DNA from: Escherichia phage phiWec188 | Sequence record: LC739537.1 | DNA length: 64,000 bases | Strand: one strand, 5' to 3' | In this document: positions 60,836 through 63,288 of the stretch, in pieces | Position numbering within the stretch: position 1 is the first letter of the stretch | How the letters are laid out: each line of letters begins with the position of its first letter | Translations under genes and position numbers: made by a program | Notes under the pieces: model-generated | The model's database searches: none | What the model was told of the DNA's origin: nothing | Seen by the model: only the letters and a program-made list of their open reading frames with translations

Positions 60836-60914
60836 TGGAGGCGGGAATCGGATTCGAACCGATGATCTCCAGCATATGAAACTGGCGAGGACGACCAAAC
60901 TCCTCTATCCCGCT
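60836..60914 (-). tRNA. tRNA, CAU anticodon (Met/fMet/Ile2), 1:72 A-C mismatch
   Basis: hand-folded cloverleaf: U8, D-stem GAGG/CCTC, anticodon loop UUCAUAU, T-arm ATCGG-TTCGAAT-CCGAT, encoded CCA. Confidence 0.6.
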
Positions 60915-60991
60915 ATTAGGTGTCCCGTGCTGGATTCGAACCAGCATCACAATAGTTGTGGATCTCTTATCCTGTAAGTCTAACGGGAAAC
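60915..60991 (-). tRNA. tRNA-like sequence, anticodon undetermined (possibly aberrant or pseudo-tRNA)
   Basis: canonical T-arm GCTGG-TTCGAAT-CCAGC and acceptor pairing, but D and anticodon arms do not fold canonically; no CCA. Confidence 0.3.
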
Positions 60992-61065
60992 TGGTTGTTT
61001 CGACAAGAATCGAACTTGTATCTCACGATTATCAGTCGTGGGTTCTACCATTGAACTACGAAACA
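60992..61065 (-). tRNA. tRNA-Ile (GAU)
   Basis: perfect acceptor TGTTTCG/CGAAACA, D-arm GTTC/GAAC, anticodon stem CACGA/TCGTG, loop CUGAUAA, encoded CCA. Confidence 0.7.
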
Positions 61066-61071
61066 TTTAAT

Positions 61072-61146
61072 TGGTCAGCATGGAGAATTTCGAAATCTCG
61101 GCCCCCTCGTCCCAAACGAGGTGCTCTGCCACTGAGCTACACGCTG
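61072..61146 (-). tRNA. tRNA-Pro (UGG)
   Basis: D-arm GCTC-AGTGGCA-GAGC, anticodon stem CCTCG/CGAGG, loop UUUGGGA, encoded CCA. Confidence 0.65.
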
Positions 61147-61346
61147 TTATTAAAAAATCTCACGTCTTATACAAGCTAACCTTTTGCCTGACGCATGAAA
61201 TTTAAATACATTCTAAAGGTACACCGTAAAAGATTGTCGGGGCGATACTTCAAAAACATACCGATCCGTAAATCGATAATCAGACAAACTTCGACGGCTC
61301 CTCGTTTTTAACTTCACACTTAAGGTAGTGACTCACCTTTGTTATA

Positions 61347-61422
61347 TGGCTGGTCTGTCTGGATTTGAACCAAACCTACGACAGTCAAAGTGTCGTGTGC
61401 TACCGGACTACACTACAAACCA
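61347..61422 (-). tRNA. tRNA-Gln (UUG)
   Basis: U1-A72, G73-CCA as in E. coli tRNA-Gln; anticodon stem CGACA/TGTCG, loop CUUUGAC. Confidence 0.65.
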
Positions 61423-61512
61423 TTTAATGAAGGGCAACCAGAAGAGGTGTGAGAGAAGGAGAAAACCATAAGTAAAAGAGAAAGTTTTCTGGCAACCCTT
61501 TATTAAATAATT

Positions 61513-61586
61513 TGGAGCGTTCTACGAGTTTCGAACTCGTGCCGCCGACTTGGAAGGACGGAATGCTACCGCTACACCAAGAACGC
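61513..61586 (-). tRNA. tRNA-Gly (UCC)
   Basis: acceptor GCGTTCT/AGAACGC, anticodon loop CUUCCAA, T-arm ACGAG-TTCGAAA-CTCGT, encoded CCA. Confidence 0.6.
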
Positions 61587-62082
61587 CCTACATCTTTACT
61601 ATACTACATTTTACTATCAGTTGTCAATAGTTTTATTGGGTGGGACAGTGACGAGTATCCCATTGGGTGACTAACCCTACGTTCGGTTGTGATTAATCTC
61701 CTGGGTGTCGCTTGCAACACTGGAAAACTCTCACGTCGATGGGAGAATCCGCTTCTTCTTTACCCCATCCAACCCTACTCCGGTCAAGTTTCAGGTGACT
61801 CTTTTTGTGATCAACACAATACTAAGAACACTGTCTTTCGAGCAGACCTTGTGCACAGGATACGACGATCAATCACAGTGCTCTTAATGTTGTGTTGTGA
61901 ATATTAACCTCGGAACTCATTACCGCGCTTCGGCTCGACCTTATTACAGGTTAGTGAATGTCTTTCTTCCGCTTACATTCAATAAATTTGCTTTCTTCAC
62001 AACGATAAGAACACTTAACAGAAGATAGGTCTGATTGCCTCGGATGATTTCTCAGTAGCCTAAATGTTCTTACCTGTTATGT

Positions 62083-62158
62083 TGGTGCTCCAAGTAGGAC
62101 TCGAACCTACGACCTCATGCTTACAAGGCAAGTGCTCTACCAACTGAGCTATTGAAGC
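62083..62158 (-). tRNA. tRNA-Thr (UGU)
   Basis: D-arm GCTC-AGTTGGTA-GAGC, anticodon loop CUUGUAA, T-arm GTAGG-TTCGAGT-CCTAC, encoded CCA. Confidence 0.65.
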
Positions 62159-62510
62159 GTATTGCGCCCCTTCAGCCATGCTTGATGTTGACCAGAACAC
62201 AGTTAAACTGTGGGAGGAGGAACACCGCAGGGGGCTTCAGTTGGACGACTTACAGGGAGCGACCCTGTTTCTTTTCTGGGACTCGGCAGGATTCGATACC
62301 TGCAATTCCAGAAGCCTCTTGGCGACTGAGGGTTTACCTTAACTCTACAAGTCCATAATTCTTAAATACTTTGGAGCCTTACTGACAAACCGTTAGTTTG
62401 TAACATAGCGTATTTCCATTCTGGGGCACCGCCTGTGAATGTAATTCCAATACAAACTTTCTCAAGATCAAACCAATTATCAAATAACATAAGAACCTCC
62501 AGTTATAATT

Positions 62511-62594
62511 TGGTGTGAGATGATGGATTCGAACCACCGCGCCTTTCAGAACAGATTTACAGTCTGCTGCAATCGACCACTCTGCCAATCTCAC
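62511..62594 (-). tRNA. tRNA-Tyr (GUA), long variable arm
   Basis: perfect acceptor GTGAGAT/ATCTCAC, anticodon stem GCAGA/TCTGT, loop CUGUAAA, 12-nt variable region, encoded CCA. Confidence 0.65.
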
Positions 62595-62719
62595 AAAATT
62601 ATTTTTAAAGTAGCCAGTATTCGCGGTACTGACTATGCGGTATCGGGGGATGGTGAGAGCCATCTGCCGAAAGTTTACTCTGTTAAAGTAAGAAACAACA
62701 AGCTACATTAAAAACAACT

Positions 62720-62805
62720 TGGCGGTAGATGTAGGACTCGAACCTACACGCCGTTTCCGACTACAGTTTAGCAAACTGTCGTGGCTACCATTTCACCAAT
62801 CTACC
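62720..62805 (-). tRNA. tRNA-Ser (GCU), long variable arm
   Basis: perfect acceptor GGTAGAT/ATCTACC, anticodon stem ACAGT/ACTGT, loop UUGCUAA, 15-nt variable arm, G73-CCA. Confidence 0.65.
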
Positions 62806-62811
62806 TAAATT

Positions 62812-62901
62812 TGGAGGAAGGTAATGGAGTCGAACCATCACCGTATCTCTACAATGGGCCAGGGTTCAAATCTGGTTGCGTACCACTACGCCCTACCTTC
62901 C
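62812..62901 (-). tRNA. tRNA-Ser (UGA), long variable arm
   Basis: perfect acceptor GGAAGGT/ACCTTCC, anticodon loop UUUGAAC, ~19-nt variable arm, encoded CCA. Confidence 0.55.
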
Positions 62902-63136
62902 ATACATTTAATCTAACATAAAACGATGTTGATTGTCAACACCTTTTAAAACATTTTATTATGAATGGTGACTCCACCAACCCCCGTTCTCCACGAACGG
63001 TACTCTTCGAGCAATCTACCCTTGCAATCAAACGTTGTACACCGTTAGCTTGCTCATGCATATTTGCCTCATTCTCTGCCAACCATGATCAGTGGTAGGG
63101 TTCAAATCACTTGAGCTAATTCATACTAAAATGTTC

Positions 63137-63211
63137 TGGTGTCTTTACAAGGAATCGAACCTTGACTAAGAGTTTAGAAGACTCCTGTGCTATCCATTAC
63201 ACCATAAAGAC
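63137..63211 (-). tRNA. tRNA-Arg (UCU)
   Basis: perfect acceptor GTCTTTA/TAAAGAC, D-arm GTGT/GCAC, anticodon loop CUUCUAA, T-arm CAAGG-TTCGATT-CCTTG, encoded CCA. Confidence 0.65.
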
Positions 63212-63213
63212 GT

Positions 63214-63288
63214 TGGTGGCCCTGACTGGTTTCGATCCAGTTGCCTATCGGTTATGAGCCGACTGCTCTCCCATTGAGCTACAGGGCC
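63214..63288 (-). tRNA. tRNA-Met (CAU), elongator-type
   Basis: acceptor GGCCCTG/CAGGGCC, D-arm GCTC/GAGC, anticodon loop CUCAUAA, atypical T-loop AUCGAAA, encoded CCA. Confidence 0.6.

Follow-up and report, generated by a model that had tools for sequence, protein, structure and literature searches.

A cluster of tRNA genes lies near one end of a 64,000-nucleotide (nt) stretch of Escherichia phage phiWec188 DNA (LC739537.1), which was analysed as a whole and is called the window here. ARAGORN found 11 tRNA genes in the whole window and nothing else, all of them on the minus strand, from 60836 to 63288. Two of the genes have a CAU anticodon and are distinguished as CAU#1 and CAU#2. In order of coordinates the genes are:

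60836-60914, minus strand: CAU#2 tRNA, probably initiator-derived, with a non-canonical anticodon stem (ARAGORN; Rfam 50 bits)
60992-61065, minus strand: tRNA-Ile (GAU) (ARAGORN; Rfam 72.2 bits)
61072-61146, minus strand: tRNA-Pro (UGG), an allele other than that of phage phAPEC8 (ARAGORN and Rfam)
61347-61422, minus strand: tRNA-Gln (UUG) (ARAGORN and Rfam)
61513-61586, minus strand: tRNA-Gly (UCC) (ARAGORN and Rfam)
62083-62158, minus strand: tRNA-Thr (UGU), an allele other than that of phages phAPEC8 and phiWec179 (ARAGORN; Rfam 73.7 bits)
62511-62594, minus strand: tRNA-Tyr (GUA), which varies more among close relatives than any other tRNA of the set (ARAGORN and Rfam)
62720-62805, minus strand: tRNA-Ser (GCU), reads AGC and AGU (ARAGORN and Rfam)
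62812-62901, minus strand: tRNA-Ser (UGA), class II (ARAGORN; 32 bits on the Rfam tRNA-Sec model)
63137-63211, minus strand: tRNA-Arg (UCU), reads AGA and AGG (ARAGORN and Rfam)
63214-63288, minus strand: CAU#1 tRNA, apparently of the lysidine type (tRNA-Ile2) and a predicted AUA reader, labelled Met by ARAGORN (ARAGORN; Rfam 66.2 bits)

Ten of the 11 genes pass the Rfam tRNA model (RF00005), scoring 50-74 bits where the gathering score is 29. The remaining gene, tRNA-Ser (UGA), has only the sub-threshold score on the tRNA-Sec model but is accepted by ARAGORN. It folds regularly as a class II tRNA (variable arm of 4 bp, GAGA loop), and phage PsgM04F carries it with 100% identity. ARAGORN called nothing in shuffled controls (30 dinucleotide shuffles of the 64-kb window and 200 of the 2.45-kb region), which excludes a chance origin of the 11 calls. 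When the cluster was scanned with permissive Rfam settings, tRNA was the sole known family matched. These results agree with an initial annotation made by folding the DNA by hand. The coordinates it gave and all of the anticodons it assigned were returned by ARAGORN, and the programs neither rejected most of the loci nor gave other anticodons. Several genes had been described as 2-6 nt apart, and the junctions Ile2/Arg, Ser/Ser and Pro/Ile do measure 2, 6 and 6 nt, respectively. The claim that most of the genes encode CCA was correct as to its presence but understated, as CCA is encoded at the 3' end of every one of the 11. Similarly, "at least 11" becomes exactly 11 canonical tRNAs, plus two tRNA-like elements that no program accepts.

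Positions 60500-64000 of the window are 100% identical to Escherichia phage phiWec190 (LC739539.1, 150.7 kb), a large virulent-type myovirus of the Stephanstirmvirinae, in whose GenBank record these 11 tRNA genes are already annotated. The cluster stops short of the end of the window and no further tRNA was found in the remaining 86.7 kb of the phiWec190 genome, and the 11 genes are the whole tRNA complement of this virulent coliphage. Phages of Phapecoctavirus and the Stephanstirmvirinae are routinely reported to carry 10-11 or "more than 10" tRNAs (PMC10698182, PMC10793346, PMC12695924). Comparable clusters are on record for every member of the subfamily. Since the genes are already annotated and sets of this size are routine in the group, the locus as a tRNA cluster is already known and ordinary. 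Its interest lies mainly in the structured RNAs found between the tRNA genes, which are the less ordinary part.

Why does a phage with a host full of tRNAs carry 11 of its own? The initial annotation had regarded a large tRNA set as typical of virulent phages that outrun host translation or replace cleaved host tRNAs, and it had left as a question which codons are supplemented. The source proves to be a virulent-type phage, and a role in codon supply is supported. Codon usage was compared between 74 open reading frames (ORFs) of the window (19,054 codons) and 56 annotated E. coli K-12 genes (21,008 codons). The ten codons with the highest phage-to-host ratios are ACA (3.5x), AGA, CCT, AGG and ACT (about 2.5x each), GGA (2.3x), TCT (2.1x), AGT and ATA (2.0x each) and TAC (1.85x), and all ten are readable by the phage tRNA set (hypergeometric p = 1.3e-5). 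Codons that are Watson-Crick cognates of the set have a mean log2 ratio of 0.58 versus -0.14 for the others (permutation p = 0.008). The five most enriched codons that end in A (ACA, AGA, GGA, ATA and CCA) each have a phage tRNA. The A-ending codons that have none, GTA, GCA, AAA and GAA, are served by abundant host tRNAs encoded in multiple copies. Seven of the anticodons are of the U34 or lysidine type (Thr-UGU, Arg-UCU, Gly-UCC, Pro-UGG, Ser-UGA, Gln-UUG and Ile2-CAU), and their codons are used by the phage at 1.2 to 3.5 times the host level, especially in the late structural genes. E. coli serves these codons with minor tRNAs that are encoded by one or two genes. Phage T4 has arrived at the same answer, using these seven anticodons as well. 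The structural block was taken as the minus strand from 24 to 59 kb, which encodes tail proteins, the tape measure protein and terminase, and was compared with the plus-strand block that encodes the primase-helicase and DNA polymerase. Per 1000 codons the structural and replication blocks have 30.2 versus 16.2 ACA, 17.6 versus 10.5 GGA and 15.5 versus 10.1 CCA; TCA and CAA are also markedly commoner in the structural block. Both tRNA-Tyr (GUA) and tRNA-Ser (GCU) fit the higher use of Tyr and AGU codons by the phage. Codon compensation is therefore considered the main function of the cluster, with a probability of roughly 70%, and the locus would be a clean quantitative case of it in a coliphage outside the T4 group.

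Several observations weigh against codon compensation. Some of the codons read by the set are not over-used, namely ATC (0.86x) and ATT (1.03x) read by tRNA-Ile (GAU), ATG (0.92x) for the Met-like CAU tRNA, AGC (0.61x), and CAA, which is only at 1.17x. Codon demand does not explain tRNA-Ile (GAU), CAU#2 or the reading of AGC. The codon signal comes partly from the lower G+C content of the phage (42% versus about 51%), and it is a correlation and not a test of need; the host reference consists of 56 genes of K-12, which is not the natural host. For mycobacteriophages, van den Berg et al. have argued that codon compensation does not explain the phage tRNAs (PMC10264068). Finally, a promoter scan returned 10 sites overall versus 7.4 +/- 2.4 expected by chance from shuffles.

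The two CAU genes, which the initial annotation had left undistinguished, are generically labelled "tRNA-Met", and one new contribution here is that their identities are corrected. CAU#1 has 36 matching records among E. coli genomes, and all of the matches listed are annotated as tRNA-Ile. The CAU tRNA of Tequatrovirus ELT1 matches it at 91% identity, and T4 tRNA-Ile does so at 83% over a local stretch of 47 nt. Its identity to E. coli ileX is 76% versus 73% to metT. The acceptor stem, GGCCCUG/CAGGGCC, contains C4:G69 and C5:G68 as in ileX, while metT has U4 and A5. These two pairs are said to be the acceptor-stem determinants recognized by TilS, reportedly established by Ikeuchi et al. in 2005. 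By these features CAU#1 is a likely lysidine-type tRNA-Ile2 and should read AUA. A search for a phage-encoded TilS was also made. None of the phage ORFs of at least 100 amino acids (aa) contains a TilS-like PP-loop motif and this candidate was rejected, so lysidine modification of CAU#1 would depend on the TilS of the host.

No counterpart of CAU#2 was detectable in 5,426 E. coli genomes. The closest host gene is the initiator metZ, at 68% identity. CAU#2 has an A1.C72 mismatch, which is marked in the Rfam alignment, where the E. coli initiator has C1.A72, and it shares the initiator features G2:C71, C3:G70 and A11:U24 with metZ (AGCGGGA UA GAGG...CCUC). However, the three G:C pairs of the initiator anticodon stem are replaced by A29-U41, G30-C40 and U31.G39 (CCAGU/GCUGG versus UCGGG/CCCGA in metZ), and for this reason CAU#2 was not filed as a canonical initiator. 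The phAPEC8 record flags its own copy as "tRNA-Pseudo-CAT". Between the two phages there is a compensatory C-G to U-A change in the T stem, which indicates that CAU#2 is maintained as a folded tRNA. It is best described as an initiator-derived tRNA of uncertain function.

An alternative to codon compensation is that the phage tRNAs mainly sustain translation when host tRNAs are destroyed, whether by the PtuAB nuclease of retron-Eco7 (tRNA-Tyr), nucleases of the colicin D type (tRNA-Arg), VapC (initiator tRNA) or the decay of host RNA that phage infection induces. Protection could come from oversupply from a strong promoter or from tRNAs that resist the nuclease. As the chief function this appears possible but rather unlikely; as a secondary role of the cluster it is regarded as real but unproven. 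The two tRNAs that codon demand leaves unexplained, tRNA-Ile (GAU) and CAU#2, are more likely to be insurance against the loss of a host tRNA. CAU#2 differs from the initiator at positions 38 and 39, which we take to be the cut site of VapC. The phage tRNAs are 61-76% identical to their host cognates, and the anticodon loops of tRNA-Ser (UGA) (compared with serT), tRNA-Ser (GCU), tRNA-Gln and CAU#2 are unlike those of the host; that of tRNA-Gln, CUUUGAC, is the same as in T4 and differs from host glnU. Changes in the anticodon loop have been proposed as an escape route for phages (PMC10264068). The other seven of the 11 loops are the same as in the host cognates, including those of tRNA-Tyr (identical to tyrU) and tRNA-Arg, and evasion of nucleases is therefore unproven. 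The clearest hint comes from tRNA-Tyr, which is a target of retron-Eco7 PtuAB (PMC11555353). T5-like phages escape this retron by over-expressing tRNA-Tyr from a strong promoter, and E. coli tRNA-Tyr placed on that promoter also works (PMC11555353). The tRNA-Tyr gene of the cluster is downstream of a promoter-like site (P2, below) with a perfect -35 and an extended -10. It is also the gene that changes fastest. It is 94% identical in phAPEC8, 92% in phiWec179 and 82% in PsgM04F, against 97-100% for the neighbouring genes (98-100% in the comparison with PsgM04F), and the four phages compared have three different anticodon stems that arose via paired double changes. Decay of host tRNAs has been described for T4 infection (PMC9697503). 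On the other hand, tRNA-Lys, the classic target of PrrC and PARIS, was not found by ARAGORN, nor were tRNAs for Asn, His and Asp, and the composition of the set closely follows codon enrichment, which would not be expected if defence were the only driving force.

A different possibility is that the cluster is chiefly a recombination hotspot for mobile RNA cassettes, most of which have little selective value. A segment-by-segment comparison of phiWec190 and PsgM04F with phAPEC8 and phiWec179 shows turnover by cassette. The gene for tRNA-Ser (UGA) has been gained, being absent from the latter two phages; tRNA-Thr has been replaced (61% identity to the phAPEC8 allele) together with an rnaD-like RNA and a 185-nt spacer; and tRNA-Pro has been replaced (64% identity) together with an element known from T-even phages. 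Pieces of the cluster are common to T-even, Klebsiella and T5-like phages, and phAPEC8 has a class-II-like tRNA-Asn at the position of a 42-aa ORF in phiWec190. Nevertheless most of the tRNAs and several spacers are under purifying selection, with identities of 97-100% and compensatory changes that preserve helices, and tRNA-Arg is 100% identical in phAPEC8, phiWec179 and PsgM04F. The anticodon set is retained while alleles turn over, as the swapped Thr and Pro alleles keep their anticodons, and the set fits codon demand. A largely selfish origin is thus very unlikely. In other respects the cluster resembles that of phAPEC8 and Phapecoctavirus: it is upstream of spanin and terminase genes, the core order is CAU, Arg, Ser-GCU, Tyr, Thr, Gly, Gln, Pro, Ile, CAU, and the leader, the spacers and the two tRNA-like elements described below are shared at 80-100% identity. 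The differences are that phiWec190 and PsgM04F have tRNA-Ser (UGA), the rnaD-like RNA, the T-even element, other Thr and Pro alleles, and the 42-aa ORF in place of tRNA-Asn. The 86-nt "tRNA-Asn" (GUU) of the relatives has a long variable arm and is thus class II, which is unusual for Asn. Closely related records, some of them 98% identical (e.g. OR584014.1), bear the names of Pseudomonas, Acinetobacter, Campylobacter and Klebsiella phages; either the genus has unusually diverse hosts or, as it seems, its host labels are not reliable.

The cluster contains three promoter-like sites with perfect -35 hexamers on the sense strand, each directly ahead of a block of tRNA genes:

63500-63528, minus strand: P1, TTGACA, 17-nt spacer, TG-TAAGAT, 10 of 12 matches (promoter scan)
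62910-62939, minus strand: P2, TTGACA, 18-nt spacer, TG-TAGATT (promoter scan)
61598-61627, minus strand: P3, TTGACA, 18-nt spacer, TATAGT, 11 of 12 matches (promoter scan)

Because the scan was not enriched overall, only these three near-consensus sites were used, and their role is put forward as a model. We infer from the sequence the promoter use, the processing route, and the aminoacylation identity and modification of the phage tRNAs. The host sigma-70 RNA polymerase would transcribe the cluster from P1, P2 and P3 as polycistronic precursors. Transcripts from P1 would begin with a structured leader of 205 nt. The -10 hexamers of P2 and P3 end 9 nt before tRNA-Ser (UGA) and 12 nt before tRNA-Gly, respectively, so transcripts from these sites would start almost at the mature 5' ends, a few bases from the first tRNA. 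Host RNase P and 3'-end nucleases would then release tRNAs that already have CCA. RNase III processing has been reported for T4 tRNA precursors, and in the phiWec190 cluster this enzyme would probably act on the long helices that close the spacers. All 11 genes run head to tail on the same strand and are closely followed by the lysis genes, the terminase genes and the structural block. Directly downstream, at 58983-59625 on the minus strand, spanin-like ORFs overlap one another, one of them containing a lipobox (LMMTGC), and the terminase large subunit comes next. The late gene block thus has the tRNA cluster at the head of its lysis and packaging end.

The leader, the spacers and the small ORF are as follows:

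63289-63495, minus strand: structured 5' leader RNA, about 205 nt, between P1 and the first tRNA (minimum free energy and covariation)
62940-63136, minus strand: Arg-to-Ser spacer with an AU-rich closing helix and an invariant hairpin (z = -2.3 to -2.6)
62595-62719, minus strand: Ser-to-Tyr spacer, helix-closed end to end (z = -4.2; 17 end-to-end pairs)
62362-62490, minus strand: 42-aa ORF with a GGAGG ribosome-binding site, at the position of the phAPEC8 tRNA-Asn (ORF list and alignment)
61898-62082, minus strand: lineage-specific 185-nt insert after tRNA-Thr, with pieces common to Klebsiella phages; contains a 38-nt motif (comparison)
61630-61897, minus strand: ancestral Thr-to-Gly spacer, starting with a nearly invariant 86-nt hairpin (61812-61897) (z = -2.9; consensus fold)
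61423-61512, minus strand: Gly-to-Gln spacer, a hairpin closed by a helix, with a pyrimidine-rich loop (z = -4.1; 13 end-to-end pairs)

The leader is very strongly folded. Its minimum free energy is -73.3 kcal/mol versus -52 +/- 3.9 for shuffled sequences (z = -5.4 to -5.6), and none of 200 shuffles was as stable. The consensus fold with three relatives has 73 pairs, with 98.6% of cells paired, and includes 9 compensatory double changes in 6 helices, all of which derive from one split between two clades. Slid controls gave 0-2 such changes, and none of 500 shuffles reached the observed value. A closing helix of 26 pairs ends 2-3 nt before the first tRNA. The leader has no Rfam match and was found in only 70 phage records, some of which annotate a small "hypothetical protein" across it.

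The ancestral Arg/Ser, Ser/Tyr and Gly/Gln spacers are closed by end-to-end helices of 13-17 bp; coding controls had z values of -0.3 to -1.7. The Arg-to-Ser spacer has 61 consensus pairs with 3 compensatory and 6 broken, and is 81% conserved across Phapecoctavirus. In the Ser-to-Tyr spacer there are 37 consensus pairs, of which 2 are compensatory and none broken. The 90-nt Gly-to-Gln spacer is 98.8% identical in phAPEC8, equal to or above most of the tRNA genes, and the Thr-to-Gly spacer is 84-86% conserved in relatives. A scan of IMG/VR with a 21-mer of tRNA-Arg returned one contig only, and the family-wide covariation therefore rests on four loci from two clades. The long closing helices suggest processing by RNase III or stable excised RNAs. 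The 42-aa ORF has no match in Pfam or PHROGs, and the flanking ORFs are likewise without an informative family match.

Four further elements are located between the tRNA genes:

62159-62276, minus strand: homolog of T4 rnaD (species 2 stable RNA), 118 nt, directly 5' of tRNA-Thr (alignment and shared fold)
about 62278-62354, minus strand: tRNA-like element X, with a 7-bp acceptor stem and a T-arm-like hairpin and no canonical anticodon arm (read from sequence and alignment)
61206-61309, minus strand: structured element of the Gln-to-Pro spacer, about 100 nt, common to T-even phages (BLAST and covariation)
60921-60989, minus strand: tRNA-like element Y, with an acceptor stem, D region and T arm, and an anticodon arm consisting of a 4-5-bp stem and a 3-5-nt loop (Rfam 21.3 bits)

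A local alignment of 62159-62276 spans the whole of T4 rnaD (z = 9.6). BLAST matched T4 rnaD at 86% over 36 nt and ELT1 at 80% over 81 nt, and the corresponding feature of T2L is annotated "rnaD: species II RNA". A shared fold of three sequences has 25 consensus pairs, 7 of them compensatory. The element abuts the 5' end of tRNA-Thr, and in T4 the start of rnaD is 1 nt after tRNA-Arg. Both phiWec190 and PsgM04F have the element; phAPEC8 and phiWec179 lack it. These data identify it as a homolog of T4 rnaD, which may accumulate as a stable small RNA. The function of rnaD is unknown (PMC3014915; PMC9697503), but a study from 2025 described a convergent rnaD mutation as a T4-like phage adapted to a new host (PMC12685909). 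A homolog of T4 rnaC was also sought in every spacer and was rejected; the best score, z of about 3, came from a shared T-arm motif alone.

The T-even element matches Mosigvirus O157tp3 along 156 nt at 84.6% identity (E = 3e-40), at a position just 3' of rIII, and its identity to T-even phages in general is 75-85%. In all, 579 phage records contain it; in T4 it is in the 244 nt between rIII and 30.9 (NC_000866 130541-130784), a gap that carries no annotation. The consensus is an interrupted hairpin with 26 pairs, of which 4 are compensatory. The Gln-to-Pro spacer by itself folds no better than shuffles (z = -0.5 to -0.6), and the evidence for structure in this element is the covariation alone. 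A scan of IMG/VR with a 14-mer of the element gave mostly chance matches, with the element in 6 of 120 reported stretches. It has no hit in Rfam, and together with the leader it is a candidate for a new phage RNA family absent from that database.

The two tRNA-like elements have neither a proper CCA nor a usable anticodon loop. Element X is 98.6-100% conserved in phAPEC8, phiWec179 and PsgM04F; it was not called by ARAGORN and had no hit in Rfam. That X is the tRNA-Asn of the relatives was considered and ruled out, as the alignment shows a separate class-II-like Asn gene upstream of X in phAPEC8. Element Y is 92-100% conserved in relatives, and its Rfam tRNA score is below the gathering score of 29. 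Both could be processing signals or decoys.

It has been considered whether these elements taken together make the cluster a hub of mobile structured noncoding RNAs that are transcribed and processed along with the tRNAs, some of them perhaps acting in trans. Candidate members are the leader of 205 nt, the spacers closed by helices, the rnaD homolog, the element from the rIII/30.9 gap, X and Y. Those that act in trans might be decoys or sponges for defence nucleases that target tRNAs, or for enzymes that modify or process tRNAs. If so, the transfer of rnaD and the T-even element between unrelated phage families with their folds kept would be a sign of selection for such a role. What T4 rnaD does has been obscure for about 50 years, and it can be argued that a fold-preserving homolog in an unrelated family, again within a tRNA operon, points to a portable, selectable function that is tied to tRNA biology. 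The proposal as a whole is speculative and we consider it unlikely.

The tRNA region of T4, which consists of 8 tRNAs plus rnaC and rnaD (species 1 and 2), is one of the closest known systems outside the genus. Seven of the eight T4 anticodons are found in phiWec190 (Arg-UCU, Ile-CAU, Thr-UGU, Ser-UGA, Pro-UGG, Gly-UCC and Gln-UUG). Both regions have an rnaD RNA amid the tRNAs and structured non-tRNA RNAs that are co-transcribed with them, which for phiWec190 is a prediction. Unlike T4, phiWec190 lacks Leu-UAA, an rnaC homolog and a homing endonuclease of the segB type, and it adds Tyr, Ser-GCU, Ile-GAU and an initiator-like tRNA. T4 belongs to the Straboviridae and phiWec190 to the Stephanstirmvirinae, and the tRNAs are just 64-73% identical, which means that the common anticodon set is convergent or was exchanged in the distant past. 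A second comparison is with the T5-like phages, which carry about 20-25 tRNAs. The phiWec190 set is much smaller at 11 and has no tRNA-Lys. The tRNA-Ser (UGA) of phiWec190 is closest to tRNA-Ser of T5-like phages (81-86%), and tRNA-Tyr is behind a strong promoter in both, the predicted P2 in phiWec190; the T5-like phages evade retron-Eco7 and PrrC (PMC11555353).

Two minor observations can be added. Outside the window, positions 134571-136151 of LC739539.1 form a region of 1.6 kb with no annotated coding sequence and no tRNA among densely packed small early genes. Within the 185-nt insert, the 38-nt motif AACCTGTAATAAGGTCGAGCCGAAGCGCGGTAATGAGT (61915-61952, minus strand) is 92-97% identical in T4 (vs.8 region, 64859-64896), Vequintavirinae, V18, Av-05 and other unrelated phages, and it looks like a small, widely dispersed module.

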